Virus record (IMG/VR): IMGVR_UViG_3300025087_000034
Length of the DNA: 64,000 bases
Origin: a virus
Taxonomy: Duplodnaviria > Caudoviricetes
Direction: 5' to 3' (one strand)
The notes under the pieces were generated by a model. That model was not told where the DNA came from, did not search any database, and was given only the letters and a program-made list of their open reading frames with translations. A program made the position numbers and the translations under genes. Numbering within the stretch: position 1 is the first letter of the stretch; every line of letters starts with the position of its first letter. This document shows, piece by piece, positions 4,201-35,877 of the stretch.

Positions 4201-7200
4201 TGGTTATGACATGCCGGTTACTGTTAGTGGCATATCTTCCGTCTGTTTTGACATAAAAAACTTTAAGGTGGAGTTTGACCCAGATTATACAGTTATATCT
4301 GGTGGTATAAATGAAGTAAGATTAAATAATGGTGTGTACGTAGAGGTTGAGCAGGACGCTTCTTTTGTTTCTACGACCAGTGGTGTTAATATTTGTGTAT
4401 ATACAGGTTCTCTTGCTGGACAGCCTGATTATATTTATGATTATGGCATAGATGAGTCTGGCATGGATAATAACGTACTATATGGTAGTGCTAAAATAGT
4501 ATCCAATGTAGAACCAGATTCCGGGGTAATAGGTTATACAGGGCTTATGTATGTTGGTACTTCTAATTACTTTAATGATTCATTCGGTAATTCTTGGAAT
4601 AGGTGGATAGACAGGCCTGCTAGTGCGAATAGTTCTGCTAAGGGGTGTCTTTGTGTGTCTTATTTAGGTGACGTTGGGTATTTTTACTATAATTATACAC
4701 CAGATACTTTTTCTTTATTTTCTCGGTCCTTGTCCTCGTCTTATGGACAGTGGAGTTTAATAGGGTGTAATACTCAAGCTCCTGGTTATACAGGAGTTGG
4801 CTCTAGTAGGGCATATTGTGTTGATATAGATGATGGAAATCAGTATCTCATTGGTCCTACTTTTATGTCTTATTTCAATAAAGAAACAGGAGTGTGGAGT
4901 TCGAGTAATATCGGGACCGGTCCTGTGTATGTAGGCGGTGGAGAGGTCTTTGATGACGGTGAGGTGTCGCCTGCTGTTTCTAGAAAGGAGCTCTTCCTAG
5001 TGCAAGACGGGGAGGTAGGGAGGTTTAAGTCCGAGTGGTTAAATTGGGAGGGGGCTAGTTTATGTGGCACTTATAGTCCTGTAGGAGCTGTAGATACCTG
5101 TGTTGTTTATTCTGAATATGATAATGCTATTTATGTTTGGTCTTATGGTACGACTTCTAATTTTTATAGAATAATGCTTGATCAAAGAAGTTGGGAAGGG
5201 CCTTTGTCAGATCCTCCTGTACCATATAATGTTGATACTGGTATATATAGTTTTTATAGGCCTTATGATGAGTGTTTGTATTTTATGATAAGTAAGTATA
5301 ATAGGTTTTTGTGCTATGATATAAAGAAAGGGGCGTGGATTAATACCAGTTCTGGTTGGTTTTTTGCCTCCGTATCCAATAATATGAGTGCTTCTTATTC
5401 TCCAATAACAGATACTGTGTATTTGAATTATGGAATAGGGACTTTAAGTACGGCAAAATATAGGTTCAAAAATAATGAGTTTAAAGATTATGTTTCTTGG
5501 GAGCCTGCTTTATTAATTAACCCTGAGGGCCAATCAGGGAAAAGTTTCAGTAGGGTTTCTCTTGGTTCTGGTAAGTATGCTAAGTCTGATAGTTTTTCTG
5601 ATTCTTTAGTAGACGGGGTCTGGTTTGATTTTGAGAGCCATGCCGTGAGTAAGACTTCTGTGGACGAGGGGGGAGGGGTTTTAAGTTTTATAATTAACAA
5701 TATTACAGAAACGGGAGGGTCCCAAGCTTTGCGGACTAATGCGTGCCCGGTTCCCTCGGCGAGTTTTTCTGCTACTATGAAAGTGAAAATTTTGGGTCTT
5801 CCTTCTCCAAACCACGCTAGTTCTTTTAATAGTTTTGTTTTTGGTGTTACGGATTACCTGGGTAGTAGGGGTAATGATTCTTGGACTGGTGTTTCTAGAA
5901 TGGGTAATACCTTGTTAGGTAAAAACGGGCTGTGGCTTATTGGTTATAATACGCAGACACTGTCTTCTAGGTATTCTTTATGGAAGAAAGAGGGACAAAG
6001 TGAGACTAGGTATGGTAGTACAAACTATATAGGTTTTAATGCCACTGATGGTACAGAAAATGCTTCTTATAGGCTTTGGCGTATAGATTATAATTATCTA
6101 ACATCAACTTTATCTGCCTATATAGATGGTGTTTTTGTAGGGTCTGTGCTGCTCACGAGTCAACTAAAGCATGGTATGTATTTATGCTTTGGTGGTTATT
6201 GTAACCAGATTTCTAGTTCTGGACAGTTGGATGTGGACGTTATAGATCTAGTAGTAAATGATTACACAAATATTTCTACGGTAGCAGGTTATATGACATT
6301 GGGCTGTTCTTCCCTTTGCTCTGAAAATTATTATGAGCGCTATGACTGTACTATGCGGTCAGAAGTACAGTTTTGTTTTGAAAATGACTTTGTTTTAGAT
6401 ACCTATTCAACGGATTCCAATAATTATGTGTGTACAATAGCAAATATCGAGAATGGTGAAAAGAAATATGAGTTGAACGCTCTCTATGATGGTTCTAAGA
6501 AAATAGGGATATATTCTTTTGGTAGCCAGTCAGAGCTGGGGTCTTATTCCTCTGTTGTGTTGCATGATTGGGCTTCTAGGTCTTTGTATAAGCTTAGTGT
6601 GGATAGTGATAAAAATCTTAGTGTTTTTGTAGATGGAACCCTAAAAGAAGAGTTGTATACTTTAGGTATAAATATTCCAGATACCTTATTAAAGCGGGTT
6701 TCATTTGGTAAGAATAATTTTAACAATCCCGCTATACGAAATATAATGGATACTAACACGGACCATATTACAACCTCTGGAACATGGTCTTTACAGCAAA
6801 ACTCCGCTTCTTATAGGGGGGCTTATTTTGGGGCTCAGCGTTATAAGTATAATGGGTCATCTTCGGACGTTATCATATTTAGATTTAATTGTGGCAGTGC
6901 TATCTATGGTAGCTTGTATATGTTTTACAATGTTGACCCGGTGTATTCTACAACAACCCCTATTATTATTTATCATAATGGTGTGGAGACTTTGCCCGTA
7001 TCAGATTCTTTTTCTACAAACCCTCTTGTGTCTGTTTTAGATAACATAGGGGAGGGAGGGGCCTCTGATTTAGATGCAACTACAGTTGTTGTGTCTCAGG
7101 TACGGGATTGTAGTGGGTATTCTGTAGATGTTGTTAGGGCATCCGGGTGGGTTTATTTGGGCAGTTATTTGGGTATAAATAGGGTTATTGTTACCGGTTA

Positions 7201-27732: not shown

Positions 27733-28371
27733 ATGATATTAGAAATGTCTTCCTGGGCCAAACTAAATATAAAAGAACCTGCCCCTTTATATGAAGTTCC
27801 AGGAATTAATTCTATAGAACCTATTGATGTATATAATTTTCGTTATTCTCGTCCGTATACTGAATTAAGTAAACCAGAACTAGAGGACCCACACAGGCAG
27901 TATTTGGATGTTTTGTGTAATTTGGACAGGGGAAGCTCTCTTTTAATTTTTGGCTCTGGTCACAGTTTTAATATGAACATCTTTTATGATTATGGGAGGT
28001 TTTCTAGGCTTGTAGCTGTAGATTTTTCCGCGGCGGCAAAAATAGGTCTTTACAAAGAAATAGAATTTTACGATAATAATATACTAGAAGGTGACTTACC
28101 TGTTGTTTGTGACTATGTTTTTTCAGCTCATACTATAGAGCATTTTTATAAGAAAGAATTATTTGATATTGTTTTACCTAGATTGTTTAAGGCTGCTAGA
28201 AGGGGTGTAGTGATATTAGTACCGTACGGTACTAATTGGGCCGGGGAACCTTACCATAAGTGTCAGTTTTATGAAAATGATGAATTTGCATCGTTGTTTG
28301 ATAAATACAGGATTGTAAGAAAGGGTTCAGAAATTATATTTTTTAAAGGGGAAACTGACCATGGATTTTAG
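27733..28371 (+). CDS. class I SAM-dependent methyltransferase
   Basis: LLIFGSGHS (motif I variant), VAVDFS, DYVFSAHTIEHF. Confidence 0.7.
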   Translation: MILEMSSWAKLNIKEPAPLYEVPGINSIEPIDVYNFRYSRPYTELSKPELEDPHRQYLDVLCNLDRGSSLLIFGSGHSFNMNIFYDYGRFSRLVAVDFSAAAKIGLYKEIEFYDNNILEGDLPVVCDYVFSAHTIEHFYKKELFDIVLPRLFKAARRGVVILVPYGTNWAGEPYHKCQFYENDEFASLFDKYRIVRKGSEIIFFKGETDHGF

Positions 28372-29052: not shown

Positions 29053-29081
29053 TTGACCTTTTTAGCCTCGCAACCTATTAT
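29053..29081 (+). promoter_or_regulatory. tnpB promoter
   Basis: TTGACC-17 nt-TATTAT inside the element left end. Confidence 0.65.
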
Positions 29082-29109
29082 TATAATAAGTCCCAGGGAG
29101 GGACTTTCA

Positions 29110-30186
29110 ATGGTTAAAACTTTTTCCTTCCGTATAAAAGATTCCACCTCTGCTAAGCACCTTTATGCTATGGCTAGAGCTGTAAACTTTGTATGGAACT
29201 ATTGCAATGAGGTTCAAAAGAAGGCTGCTAATAGTCATAGGCCCTGGGTTAATTGGGTAATGTTAAATAACCTAACTTCCGGGTGTTCCAAGGAACTTCG
29301 TTTGCATAGCCAAACTATTCAAGCTATTGACGAATGTTATGCTACTTCACTAAAGGAAGCCAAATCTCCTACTGGTAAAAAGAAACGTTTCCTACGATTC
29401 CGTGGTAGAAGAAGCCAGGGCTGGATTCCTTTCAAAGCTTCTGGAATAAAACTTCGTAAGGATTCCGTTGTTTACCAAGGACGAATATTCCGCTTCTGGA
29501 AGACTCGAAGTATTCCTGAACAAATTAAGGGTGGAAACTTCTCTTGTGACGTTAGGGGTCGTTGGTACCTTAACCTTGTCTGTGAATACGAGGAAGCCCT
29601 TGTTTCCAACGAAGGTAGTGTTGGCATTGATTTAGGACTTAAGTCTTTGGCTACCTTGTCTAACGGTAAAAAGTACGATGCTCAAAAGTTCTTCCGCAAG
29701 TATGAGAGAAAGCTTGCTCACCACCAACGGTGTAATAATGCACGTCAAGTAAGAACGATTCATGCTAAGATAGCTAACTCTCGTAAAGATTTCAACCATA
29801 AAGTTTCCCATGAGTTGACCAGAGACTTTAATAAGGTATTCATCGGTGACGTAGACAGCCTTGGTCTATTAAAGACCAGGCTAGCCAAGTCAGTTTCCGA
29901 CGCTTCTTGGGGTCAGCTCCGTACCTTCATTGAATACAAAGCGATTGCGCGTGGTGGTACGTACTACGTTGTTGACGAGAACAACACTACTCGAACCTGT
30001 TCAGCCTGTGGGTGCCTTACTGGGCCCTCCGGTCTAGCAGGGCTTCGAGTTAGAGAATGGCAGTGTAAAGAGTGTGGCACGGTGCACGATAGGGATACCA
30101 ACTCAGCTATCAATATTGAACAACGAGGCCTCTCAACTCTGCATTCTCCACTCAGGACATTGAGTGCTAAAGAGGAAATTCCTTAG
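29110..30186 (+). CDS. tnpB: TnpB RNA-guided endonuclease (rearranged RuvC-II type)
   Basis: ATG 29110 after GGAGG. VNFVWNYC, GIDLGLK, VFIGDV, VDENNTTRTCSAC, CKECGTVHDRDTNSAINI. Confidence 0.92.
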   Translation: MVKTFSFRIKDSTSAKHLYAMARAVNFVWNYCNEVQKKAANSHRPWVNWVMLNNLTSGCSKELRLHSQTIQAIDECYATSLKEAKSPTGKKKRFLRFRGRRSQGWIPFKASGIKLRKDSVVYQGRIFRFWKTRSIPEQIKGGNFSCDVRGRWYLNLVCEYEEALVSNEGSVGIDLGLKSLATLSNGKKYDAQKFFRKYERKLAHHQRCNNARQVRTIHAKIANSRKDFNHKVSHELTRDFNKVFIGDVDSLGLLKTRLAKSVSDASWGQLRTFIEYKAIARGGTYYVVDENNTTRTCSACGCLTGPSGLAGLRVREWQCKECGTVHDRDTNSAINIEQRGLSTLHSPLRTLSAKEEIP

Positions 30187-31864: not shown

Positions 31865-33120
31865 AGGACCTGCTAATTTTTGTTCCGTTAGATACTTTTG
31901 CGAAGGCACAATATGAGTTTCTTCCATTAGGTCCATTATATTTGTCTTCGTATTTAAGTAGGGCAGGATTTGAAGTAGATGTTGTTCATGGCTTAGTTTC
32001 AGATATAAAGCCAGGGTATAAATACTACGGGCTTTCTGCGTCTACTGCTCAGTATATAATGATAAAAGAAGCTCTTTCTTATATTAGGGAAATACAGTTG
32101 GGGGCGGTTGTTGTGGCAGGGGGGCCCCATTTTAATGCAGGGCAGTGTGTAGAGGAGGCTCGTGGTGACGGATGGGACCATATAGTGGTCGGTGATGGTG
32201 AGGTGGCCTTGTTAGATATTATGTCTAATAAGGTTTCTAGGACTGACCTTGTAATATATGGCACCCCTATTTTAAACGTTGACGAGGTTCCTTTCCCCGA
32301 CTACGATAAATTAGACATACATAAGTATAATTTTCCTTTAAAAGATGGATTAAAATGTGTAAATATTATAACTTCTAGAGGATGCCCCTTTAAGTGTGCT
32401 TTTTGTAGCACTTCCAATAAGAAGCTAAGGCAAAGGTCAGCAGATAACGTTTTGGAAGAGGTAGACCTATTAATAAATAAGTATGGTTTTGATAGTCTTA
32501 TGTTTGTTGATGACACAATGTCGATAAACTCTAAAAGATACTACTCAATACTGTCTGGTTTGGAGGAGTTTGACTTAAAATGGCGTTCTTATGCTAGAAC
32601 TACTACTATAACCTATGAAGGCCTAGAAAGAATGAAGAGGTCTGGGTGTATAGAGGCAGGACCTGGCATAGAATCCGGAAATCAGGATATTTTGGATATG
32701 ATAGGAAAAGGGACAAACGTTGAGTCAAATATTGCCTGGTGTAGGCGGTGTGAGGAAACAGGTATAACCTGTACACCCTCAATCATAATAGGTTTACCAA
32801 ATGAGTCTTATAGTACTATTAATGATGCACTAGTTTTTATGGAGAGGGCTAAGACTAGTGCCTTTGCATATAATATGCTTATGCCTTTTCCTGACTCTCC
32901 TATTTTACAAAATTATGATTACTGGAAAGATTATGTAACGGTATACCCTTATACGTGGGAAGATTGTGTTACTAAATCTAAGAAAATAACCAAGTGTTTT
33001 ATTTCTACCCCGTACCTGACAAGGGAACAGATATTGGAAGAGTACTATAAAAATTATGGTCGTTTTGCTGAAATCACAGGGTTTGACCCTAGAAAAAGGG
33101 GCACTAGAAAAGATGATTAG
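31861..33120 (+). CDS. cobalamin-binding radical SAM enzyme (class B methyltransferase-like)
   Basis: PLGPLYLSSYL, VVAGGPH, GDGE B12 domain; SRGCPFKCAFC; FVDD; GIESG. Confidence 0.9.
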   Translation: MKDLLIFVPLDTFAKAQYEFLPLGPLYLSSYLSRAGFEVDVVHGLVSDIKPGYKYYGLSASTAQYIMIKEALSYIREIQLGAVVVAGGPHFNAGQCVEEARGDGWDHIVVGDGEVALLDIMSNKVSRTDLVIYGTPILNVDEVPFPDYDKLDIHKYNFPLKDGLKCVNIITSRGCPFKCAFCSTSNKKLRQRSADNVLEEVDLLINKYGFDSLMFVDDTMSINSKRYYSILSGLEEFDLKWRSYARTTTITYEGLERMKRSGCIEAGPGIESGNQDILDMIGKGTNVESNIAWCRRCEETGITCTPSIIIGLPNESYSTINDALVFMERAKTSAFAYNMLMPFPDSPILQNYDYWKDYVTVYPYTWEDCVTKSKKITKCFISTPYLTREQILEEYYKNYGRFAEITGFDPRKRGTRKDD

Positions 33121-33724
33121 AACATATACACAGGATTGGTTTGATAGGTGTATACCTTCTTGGACAAAATATCTTGATAAATATAAGGGAAAGGAAAACC
33201 TTAGGTTTCTAGAAGTTGGAAGTTATGAGGGGCGTTCCACTTGTTGGTTGTTGGACAATATTCTTACACATTTATCATCTAAAATAAAGTGTTTTGATTT
33301 GTTTGAGGGTTGTTCTTCTCAGGGGGAGTGGTCTAAAGAACTCTACGATAGGTATAATATGAGTGAGGTTTTCAGGAACTTCATTAGTAATGTTTCTTCT
33401 TATGGTGACCGTGTTGAATATAGGGTAGGGGTTTCTCAAGAACTCTTACGTGAACTAGGGCATTCTCCCTTGTTTGATTTTATATATATAGATGGTTCCC
33501 ATATAGCTTGTGACGTTCTTGAAGATTCCGTTCTTGCTTTTAGGCTTCTTAAGCCCAACGGTATAATGATATTGGATGACTATACCTGGGAATTTTTTGA
33601 GGAACCTTTACGCCATCCTAAAATGGGAATAGATGCTTTTCTTACTATTTTTCATGGTCAATTTGATGTGTTGTTAAAAGACAGACAGGTTATATTAAGA
33701 AAGACAGGAATAAAAGAAGAGTAA
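33113..33724 (+). CDS. class I SAM-dependent methyltransferase (Methyltransf_24-like)
   Basis: FLEVGSYEGRS, FDFIYIDGSH, LLKPNGIMILDDY. Its stop codon is supplied by the IscB element end. Confidence 0.88.
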   Translation: MIRTYTQDWFDRCIPSWTKYLDKYKGKENLRFLEVGSYEGRSTCWLLDNILTHLSSKIKCFDLFEGCSSQGEWSKELYDRYNMSEVFRNFISNVSSYGDRVEYRVGVSQELLRELGHSPLFDFIYIDGSHIACDVLEDSVLAFRLLKPNGIMILDDYTWEFFEEPLRHPKMGIDAFLTIFHGQFDVLLKDRQVILRKTGIKEE

Positions 33725-33967
33725 GCAACCCCACGCCTAAGGGCGGGGGCTTTCGAGTCCTTGCTTACTAGGGAACAATTCCAAAAAAGGAGTCGTTAAT
33801 CGTTGAGTAGAAGAAATACATACACACCTACGGATGCTCCTCAAGTTCGTAGCAACTGTGACGCTGAATTAAAAACCCCTAGGGGTAGGGGTGGTGTTCA
33901 GCGTTTAAAAACTCTACCCAACCGTCCCGATGAGGATCTAATCTTAGCTTCGGCTAAGAGACAGAAC
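33700..33967 (+). ncRNA. IscB omega RNA 1 (5' flank-derived guide + scaffold)
   Basis: ~250-nt hairpin-rich leader conserved with 49451-49701, upstream of a PLMP-type iscB. Confidence 0.75.
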
Positions 33968-35217
33968 TTGCGAGTCTCTGTCTATGTCTTAAACCAGCGA
34001 AGTCAGCCATTGATGCCAACAACACCAAGAAAAGCTGAGAAGCTATTGAAGGAGGGAAAGGCTATAGTTGTTAAGCGAGCGCCTTTCACTATTCAGTTGA
34101 CCTATTCTACGGGAGAGAACAAACAGCCCATCAGGCTAGGGGTAGATAGTGGTTTCGTACACGTAGGATTATCAGCAGTTTCAAAGAAACAAGAACTTTA
34201 CTCTGCCGAGGTTCAACTACGAATCGATATAGTGAATTTATTATCGGAACGTAGGTCTTATAGGAGAAATCGTAGAAATAGAAAGACTCGCTATCGTCAA
34301 GCTCGTTTCCTTAATCGAGGTATAAAAAAAGGCTGGCGGGCTCCTTCTATTCAGCACAAATTGGATAGCCATATTAGGTTGGTAAACAAGGTTAAGCAAA
34401 TCTTACCCATTACTGAGGTGGTGGTAGAGGTAGCCTCGTTTGATATTCAGAAGATAAAGAACCCAGAGATAAGTGGTAAACAGTATCAAGAGGGGGAACA
34501 AAAGGACTTTTGGAACACCAGAGAATACATCCTTCATAGAGATGACCATAAGTGCTGCCATTGTAAGGGTAAATCAAAGGACCCCATTCTTAGTGTTCAC
34601 CATTTGGAATCTAGGAAGACTGGTGGTGATAAACCAGCTAATTTGATAACGCTGTGTAAGACGTGCCACGATGATTACCATGGTGGAAAAATTGAATTGA
34701 AAGCGAAACCTTCCAAAGGGTTCAAAGCTGAAGTTTTTATGACAATGGTACGATGGCGCTTAGTAGAACAGTTGCAATGTAGGTACATCTATGGCTATGT
34801 CACCAAACAAGCTAGGGTATTGTTAGGCTTGCCTAAGAGCCATATCAACGACGCATTTGTAATCGTGAGTTCAGGGGCGTGTCCTAGAAGCCAAACCTAC
34901 TTTATTAAGCAGGTTAGAAAGCAAAATCGTAAGCTCTTTAAGGGACTACATAGTGGAATAAGAAACACAGCAACTCGTTATATCCAAGGTTTTCAACGGT
35001 ATGATAAAGTACTATGGAAGGGACAGGAGTGTTTTGTGTTTGGTAGACGAACCACGGGTTACTTTGACCTGAGATTATTAGACGGCACCAAAGTCCATAC
35101 TTCAGCTAAGGCTAAGGACTGTGTTAGACTAGAAAGCGGTAAAACGTTACTAACCCAAATAAGGAGCAGCGCTTCCTCCCCATGGTTAAAACCAAGGGTT
35201 TCCGCGCTGGAGATTCA
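33721..35217 (+). mobile_element. non-autonomous iscB (IS200/IS605 family) element 1
   Basis: Starts GTAAGCAACCCCACGCCTAAGGGCGGGGGC, ends with hairpin ...GGGTTTCCGCGCTGGAGATTCA directly before ATGA. Ends are homologous to element 2. Confidence 0.85.
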
Positions 35218-35221
35218 ATGA
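33968..35221 (+). CDS. iscB: IscB RNA-guided endonuclease 1
   Basis: YVLNQRSQPLMP, LGVDSG (RuvC-I), Arg-rich bridge helix, VVEV, HNH (VHHL..RKTGGD...NLITLCKTCH), SHINDA. Start TTG 33968 is inferred. Confidence 0.93.
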   Translation: MRVSVYVLNQRSQPLMPTTPRKAEKLLKEGKAIVVKRAPFTIQLTYSTGENKQPIRLGVDSGFVHVGLSAVSKKQELYSAEVQLRIDIVNLLSERRSYRRNRRNRKTRYRQARFLNRGIKKGWRAPSIQHKLDSHIRLVNKVKQILPITEVVVEVASFDIQKIKNPEISGKQYQEGEQKDFWNTREYILHRDDHKCCHCKGKSKDPILSVHHLESRKTGGDKPANLITLCKTCHDDYHGGKIELKAKPSKGFKAEVFMTMVRWRLVEQLQCRYIYGYVTKQARVLLGLPKSHINDAFVIVSSGACPRSQTYFIKQVRKQNRKLFKGLHSGIRNTATRYIQGFQRYDKVLWKGQECFVFGRRTTGYFDLRLLDGTKVHTSAKAKDCVRLESGKTLLTQIRSSASSPWLKPRVSALEIQ

Positions 35222-35877
35222 CTGCTTTAGCTATAGTAGGAGCAGGGGGCCATGGTAGAGAGGTTTTATTATATTCTCAAGGGGTGCATGATTATAAATT
35301 TGAGGACGTATTTTTTCTTGACGATAATGAGAAACTAATAGGTTCTTATGTTTGTGATGCTTTGGTATTAGGTACAATAGAGGGGACCGTTGAAAGGCTG
35401 GATCCAGAAGATACCCTTTTTGTATGTGCCGTGGGTTCCCCTTATTTACGTATGGCCTTTGTTAACAGAGTACTCGCTGTGTGGGGCGACAGGGCTAAGT
35501 TCGCAAACATAGTGCATAGTAGTATTTTTTTATCGAAGTTTGTAAGTTTGGGTGTCGGGAGTATGGTTTGTCCTGGTACCTTAGTGACTACCAATGTAAA
35601 GATAGGTAACCATGTGAGTGTAAATTTGAATTGCACTCTAAGTCACGATGTTGTTATCGAGGACTTTGTGAATTTATCCCCCGCTGTACATTTATGTGGC
35701 GGTAGTATTCTTCGGGAGGGGTGCGACATAGGGGCGGCTGTAACTGTAATACCTAAGGTAGAAATTGGGGAGGGGGCTGTAGTAGGTGCCGGTGCTTGTG
35801 TTATTTCTGATATTCCACCACATAGTCTGGCTGTTGGTGTTCCTGCCAGAATTGTTCGTCACAATTTAAATAAGTGA
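35218..35877 (+). CDS. NeuD/PglD/VioB-family sugar N/O-acetyltransferase
   Basis: IVGAGGHGREV, FLDDN, AVGSP.LR, hexapeptide repeats (HD..IEDFV), VGVPAR. Confidence 0.9.
   Translation: MTALAIVGAGGHGREVLLYSQGVHDYKFEDVFFLDDNEKLIGSYVCDALVLGTIEGTVERLDPEDTLFVCAVGSPYLRMAFVNRVLAVWGDRAKFANIVHSSIFLSKFVSLGVGSMVCPGTLVTTNVKIGNHVSVNLNCTLSHDVVIEDFVNLSPAVHLCGGSILREGCDIGAAVTVIPKVEIGEGAVVGAGACVISDIPPHSLAVGVPARIVRHNLNK

Follow-up and report, generated by a model that had tools for sequence, protein, structure and literature searches.

The locus described here raises the question of how a 1497-bp mobile element with its own nuclease gene can lie at the overlapping stop and start codons of two phage genes and leave both encoded proteins unchanged, and whether such placement is a property of the wider family. 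The element, termed E1, was found in a window of 64,000 nucleotides, the whole stretch of DNA that was analysed, which is part of a 133-kb virus record (58% complete) of a groundwater phage. The same proteins are present on contigs of up to 258 kb, several of which carry the label groundwater metagenome. Between positions 27733 and 41206 the plus strand of the window holds a long cluster of sugar-modifying phage genes encoding a DegT aminotransferase, a B12 radical SAM protein, methyltransferases, a NeuD-type acetyltransferase and an epimerase, and E1 with its flanking genes is part of this co-oriented cluster. A TnpB gene (29053-30186, plus strand; PF07282, PF01385) constitutes a second kind of IS200/IS605 cargo within the same cluster. 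The locus contains the following features:

33113..33724, plus strand: upstream host gene, class I methyltransferase, 203 residues from ATG (PF13578, Methyltransf_24, E 1e-18)
33721..35217, plus strand: IscB element E1, 1497 bp, non-autonomous (defined by its junctions, the similarity of its ends to those of relatives and the guide rule)
33721..33724, plus strand: terminal GTAA, the cleavage site of the right end (TTAC as read on the TnpA strand), with the replacement stop at bases 2-4
33721..33942, plus strand: omegaRNA scaffold, HEARO RF02033 (Rfam, 113.9 bits, full model)
33729-33749, plus strand: right-end subterminal hairpin (from sequence)
33750-33753, plus strand: right-end DNA guide CTTT (AAAG on the TnpA strand; compare AAAG/TTAC of IS608, PMC3201880)
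33968..35221, plus strand: iscB (NF040563, 350 bits against a cut-off of 175; PF14239, PF01844)
35178-35198, plus strand: left-end hairpin (from sequence), at the 19-nt distance from the cleavage site seen in IS608
35199-35202, plus strand: left-end DNA guide TTTC, 15 nt from the target, predicting ATGA
35209..35212, plus strand: GGAG, possible Shine-Dalgarno sequence, 5 nt before the ATG at 35218, its first G closing the outer stem
35218..35221, plus strand: target/TAM ATGA, serving as acetyltransferase start, iscB stop and presumed original methyltransferase stop
35218..35877, plus strand: downstream host gene, sugar acetyltransferase of the NeuD/PglB/VioB family, 219 residues (TIGR03570 above cut-off)

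[quoted passage not shown] The iscB frame probably starts at the TTG at 33968, which would give a protein of 417 residues without a clear Shine-Dalgarno sequence, and it crosses the left-end hairpin to end on the TGA of the target (35219-35221). At the filled 5' junction, which reads GAA GA|G TAA, the methyltransferase terminates on a TAA (33722-33724) that is supplied by the element. Cutting out 33721-35217 yields a reconstructed empty junction of GAA GA|A TGA, with ATG ACT GCT in an ATGA overlap. Both versions encode the identical GIKEE* terminus and the acetyltransferase is unchanged too; at the level of protein sequence the insertion is silent, and every sequence statement that an earlier note had made about this junction holds. 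The silence follows from the geometry of the site: since GTAA consists of one base plus a stop, like A plus TGA, an upstream gene keeps an in-register stop at an ATGA overlap, and since its last codon changes only from NNA to NNG, the exchange is synonymous except for ATA. An insertion 5' of ATGA without duplication of the target likewise leaves an ATGA start or stop/start overlap intact, and no duplication is seen at E1, as judged from the filled site alone. The methyltransferase is called as 219 residues in some assemblies; 80 viral homologues stop at projected residues 193-207 of 203. In the acetyltransferase, the family match extends from residue 4 and homologues begin at the same methionine. 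In light of these homologue termini, we take the end of the former and the start of the latter to be natural.

The rule by which guide and cleavage site pair position by position is derived from the structure of IS608, and we checked it against the AAAG/TTAC pair of that element. In IS608, cleavage sites pair with 4-nt guides beside hairpins, the left site being located 19 nt from its hairpin (PMC3201880). Applied to E1, the rule predicts ATGA from TTTC and GTAA from CTTT. Among 137 relatives, the guide-predicted target is present in 125, compared to about 16 expected by chance, and the spacers between guide and element end peak at 14-17 nt. Guide and target covary, as illustrated by TTTC/ATGA in E1, TACC/ATGG in its sister element E2 and TAGC/ATGC in a close relative (L347), and in the relatives compared the GTAA end covaries with the guide CTTT and the GTCA end with CTTG. 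Based on these sequence comparisons, a choice of the target by the DNA guide is supported. For another locus (L003), a reading as ATGG insertion was rejected because its guide predicts ATAA; its left end (iscB stop at 4309) is that of an ATAA-target element with a strong AAGGAGGTGA, beside which a short ATG frame ends in a stop that overlaps the start of the next gene.

The empty allele, for which the earlier note had suggested to look in related phages, was not found at the E1 site itself: the junction pattern has no match in the viral contigs searched, all places seen among the 21-23 junction-crossing contigs are filled by the element, look-ups with the exact proteins return filled alleles or contigs that end within the element and not at the junction, and homologue searches with both flanking genes recover distant relatives of 26-44% identity only. 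For two relatives of 63-65% amino acid identity, empty alleles were encountered in 7 and 18 Methanoperedens genomes and show an exact N|ATGA insertion, both at conserved stop/start overlaps. The N|ATGA target and 5'-GT ends had previously been verified by empty loci (Kapitonov 2016, PMC4810608), in agreement with the proposal that ATGA is a known IscB-type target. We infer the boundaries of E1 from the TnpA guide rule, the empty alleles of the two relatives and the published N|ATGA loci.

As for the expression of the downstream gene, the two signals to which a rescue had been ascribed are both present, a GGAG (35209-35212) 5 nt before the ATG and an iscB stop (35219-35221) overlapping it. The claim that they preserve coupling needs revision, as the insertion severs the coupling between methyltransferase and acetyltransferase, and the latter is now coupled to iscB instead. 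The GGAG is located at the base of a predicted RNA stem, which would be melted by a ribosome translating iscB. Within the close clade, this motif varies between GGAG (3) and GAAG (5). Across the survey described below, we rejected a general role of element-borne Shine-Dalgarno sequences or coupling as adaptation to start codons, since neither is enriched there: the former are found at 11 of 38 starts and 10 of 49 sites elsewhere (p=0.45), and an iscB stop within the target at 11 of 38 and 13 of 49, respectively (p=0.81). Where iscB frames reach the element end, 24 of 28 stop in or on the target, thus providing the nuclease with a fixed C-terminus. The number of internal promoter matches in E1 (7 vs 5.3) is what chance would give, and a search of its sense strand for terminators was negative.

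Two further copies of the family are contained in the same genome:

49451..50936, plus strand: sister element E2, 81% amino acid identity, with a GTAA end, guide TACC and target ATGG
121034-120778 of genome C1, minus strand, outside the window: IscB mini element of 257 bp without ORF, before an ATGG start

E2 adjoins the start of an IMPDH/GMP-reductase-like gene and is not silent, altering the end of an RNase HII from NG* to SKQPHA*. The mini element has probably decayed, as judged from a left guide with one change that predicts ATAG; its empty site would place a GAGG just 3 nt before the ATG. All three IscB-family copies of the contig adjoin a start codon, compared to 36 of 1119 ATGA motifs that are first-Met starts (with 6 of 1119 being stop/start overlaps) and 27 of 1071 ATGG motifs, and this placement exceeds chance. 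No Y1_Tnp domain characteristic of TnpA was detected in this 58% complete contig.

In a survey across relatives, 225 loci were reduced to 94 independent sites with both ends, 87 of which have ATGA or ATGG targets, and same-strand motifs in the element flanks were used as controls. With a start defined as opening a long ORF, start codons were found at 42 of the 87 sites and at 182 of 1994 control motifs (OR 9.3, p=1e-19), whereas a second gene-calling heuristic placed 38 of 87 at starts. Overall, 44-48% of sites coincide with starts vs 8-9% of nearby motifs, which is about five times the motif expectation, in gene calls that are ORF heuristics and undercount starts (one locus, L113, was missed in the first count). 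The upstream flank keeps a Shine-Dalgarno sequence at 22 of 38 starts and 15 of 49 other sites, which supports the surveyed starts as true. The enrichment at start codons for which the earlier note had suggested to look is thus real. Its notion that the motif itself steers the element to operon junctions is not borne out: 8-11% of ATGA motifs are starts and 0.5-1% overlaps, and with only about 9% of motifs being starts, ATGA permits a start site but does not steer towards it, so that the excess needs something more.

Most of this excess is probably due to avoidance or loss of gene-breaking sites, as 24% of the insertions are located inside genes and 75% of the control motifs. Among non-disrupting sites, starts are still in excess (38/66 vs 151/488, OR 3.0, p=4e-5), and an effect with an OR of 2.6 (p=8e-4) persists after adjustment for fifth base, GC content and folding. 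The fifth target base is an A in 62 of 84 sites and 595 of 1835 controls (in E1 it is a C), occupied starts are richer in AT than free starts (p=0.004), and occupied sites in general fold more weakly and are more AT-rich than controls. A need for read-in transcription, as reflected in the published orientation bias, may account for part of the residual excess. The copies in Duodenibacillus massiliensis, which are 98-99% identical, lack a Shine-Dalgarno sequence and carry an iscB stop located 30 nt early, are found at starts in 11 of 15 cases (13 of 15 by hand) vs 11% of control motifs. The corresponding loci (L520-L552, G466) comprise about 26 IscB matches; of the 15 copies that were parsed, 14 share the reading frame of a long ORF behind them. 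In close phage relatives of E1, nearly all copies adjoin starts. The already mentioned relative with the guide TAGC (L347, 2501-3907) occupies an ATGC that shares its frame with a ribonucleotide reductase gene.

The two types of element ends differ in their effect on the upstream gene. GTCA is found at 141 of 155 ends and GTAA at 7 of 155, and copies with the former lengthen the upstream protein by 5-25 residues (15 cases ending in the TGA of the target). Given these extensions and the 24% of surveyed sites inside genes, the statement of the earlier note that the element does no harm is not supported in its original wording. Among GTAA elements with ATGA targets, 4-5 of 11 are located at overlaps, all of them silent (E1, L341, L342, L469 and probably L466), vs 8 of 81 with other ends. 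Without E1, this excess has a p-value of 0.10, or 0.02 if L466 is included, and it vanishes when compared to any TGA stop (p=0.2-0.4). On a quickly built IscB tree, in which a few long rows (n467, n152) are misplaced, GTAA needs 6-8 changes and the nearest relatives of E1 carry both end types. By inspection, loci reading as TnpB-type elements also end in GTAA, where it cannot provide a sense stop as it does in E1. We regard the pattern as suggestive of preferential retention at overlaps and not as proof. Two phage elements of about 365 bp with a GTAA end (L341, 4201-4566; L343, 4087-4451) consist of omegaRNA only and reside at starts, one of them silently in an overlap. A search for further GTAA elements recovered a single match from 413 bacterial genomes, which does not resemble an element, and none from GenBank phages; a loose pattern returned chance matches only. 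In L001 and L002 (also L160), the outer stem arms of the left end enclose an inner hairpin region that has been inverted or made symmetrical, through either a misassembly or a genuine palindrome inversion.

Taken together, we favour with a probability of about 0.6 that E1 is an element of known type, whose placement at a start results from selection and a preference for AT-rich target DNA. In this scheme, a host Y1 transposase (TnpA) would move E1 in trans by single-strand peel-and-paste, with the 4-nt left-end guide selecting ATGA and insertion occurring exactly 5' of it without duplication. The motif would make starts and overlaps available, and their excess would arise from the loss of gene-breaking insertions, the requirement of the element for sense-strand read-in transcription to produce its guide RNA, and a bias towards ATGAA and AT-rich, weakly folded DNA. 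Translation of the acetyltransferase might rely on the GGAG together with ribosomes that re-initiate behind iscB, features that would be incidental to the E1 copy. By analogy to a characterized homologue (10.1101/2023.03.14.532601), the omegaRNA guide would correspond to the 3' end of the methyltransferase directly 5' of 33721, and IscB loaded with this guide from the flank would cleave alleles that lack the insertion and thereby keep the element fixed; cleavage at a TAM identical to the target motif is a candidate activity, compare TTCAT for GstIscB. Mobilisation, homing-like retention and harmless expression of E1 are properties that we infer. The guide-predicted targets and the covariation of guide and target among relatives, the exact empty alleles, the deficit inside genes, the AT bias, the lack of enrichment of Shine-Dalgarno sequences and coupling, the GTAA ends of TnpB-type loci and the published orientation bias speak for this explanation. 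Against it stand the negative searches for an empty E1 allele and for a TnpA gene in the contig, the residual start excess, the Duodenibacillus copies, and the occurrence of GTAA at overlaps together with its 6-8 changes on the tree.

These latter observations form the basis of other accounts. That ATG-target IscB elements occupy a safe harbour beyond passive survival, be it through a preference for initiation regions or a selected stop-rebuilding GTAA, is a tentative proposal. Its fully adaptive version, in which ATG targets, the GTAA end, an iscB frame terminating within the target, and tails that contain GGAG or are rich in AU were all selected for harmlessness, appears unlikely to us. It would account for the 24 of 28 end-reaching frames that stop in or on the target, the silence of all 4-5 GTAA overlap insertions, the repeated appearance of GTAA on the tree, accompanied by corresponding changes in guide and omegaRNA stem, and the near-exclusive placement of close phage relatives at starts. 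However, neither stop-in-target nor Shine-Dalgarno sequences are commoner at starts, the target TGA also simply fixes the C-terminus of IscB, and GTAA is a minority end, whose overlap excess is borderline without E1 and absent against any TGA stop, in a sample that is mostly of phage origin, where overlaps may be commoner.

We consider it still more doubtful that integration is truly targeted beyond the tetranucleotide, with a preference for initiation regions as unstructured single-stranded or transcription-exposed DNA. The residual OR of 2.6, the 11-13 of 15 starts in a near-identical Duodenibacillus family devoid of rescue signals and the AT-rich, weakly folded nature of occupied sites would be expected from such targeting, but the 1-2% divergence of these copies leaves time for selection, the start effect outlasts adjustment for GC and folding so that measured accessibility does not explain it, and the gene calls are ORF heuristics. 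Finally, the boundaries could be shifted by two bases (GT|GA) or the junction remodelled after insertion, in which case the reconstructed allele never existed. GT|GA, GT|GG and GT|AA targets are listed for other ISC families in Table 1 of PMC4810608, a GT|GA cut at E1 would give an empty GAG TGA with a GTG start and the same proteins, and the viral contigs searched contained no empty E1 site; yet the guide rule demands an A at the first position and the empty alleles of the relatives read ATGA, for which reason GT|GA was rejected for them, making this scenario very improbable.

The element family, the ATGA target and the orientation bias are already known. ISC2-1_HM, ISC2-1_MS and ISC1-1_MA have the N|ATGA target predicted for E1 and insert without duplication, of which the filled E1 site shows no sign either, and ISC2 transposons share its length of about 1.5 kb, iscB as only gene, the 5'-GT terminus and subterminal hairpins, but they begin with GTCA instead of GTAA (PMC4810608); the same paper contains no mention of 'start codon', 'stop codon' or GTAA. 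ISGst from Geobacillus stearothermophilus uses a TTCAT TAM, equivalent to ATGAA on the iscB strand, and guide-TAM pairing; it draws its omegaRNA guide from the upstream flank, as E1 would, and like E1 it is co-oriented with the upstream gene (10.1101/2023.03.14.532601). Its activity was measured, whereas that of E1 is predicted and the fifth target base of E1 is a C; in that paper, we found no statement on docking at start codons. IS608 from Helicobacter pylori has the same 19-nt distance between left site and hairpin and the same AAAG/TTAC pair (He et al. 2011, PMC3201880). Unlike E1, IS608 is autonomous with TnpB and TTAC is its target, whereas in E1 TTAC marks the right end and TCAT the target. 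In the literature searched, most of it non-subscription, no paper was found that states either a start-codon bias or a stop-restoring end. IStrons, which combine a group I intron with IS605 or IS607, also insert without harm to the host protein. These achieve silence by splicing, E1 by position and without an intron: group I introns are absent from the window, where an Rfam scan finds two HEARO matches only.

The finding that nearly half of the surveyed ATG-target IscB insertions, and 11-13 of 15 copies in one genome, are located directly on start codons is possibly an unreported pattern of the family, and these insertions often separate a ribosome-binding site from its gene. For annotators, this serves as a warning that IscB elements part genes from their native translation signals. 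Comparing GTAA with GTCA would be a simple way to test if the ends of transposons adapt to the reading frames of their hosts, and the copies in Duodenibacillus massiliensis provide a good natural system for polarity tests. If true, the pattern would help to explain how the ancestors of Cas9 survive, without splicing, in densely packed phage genomes and in essential operons.
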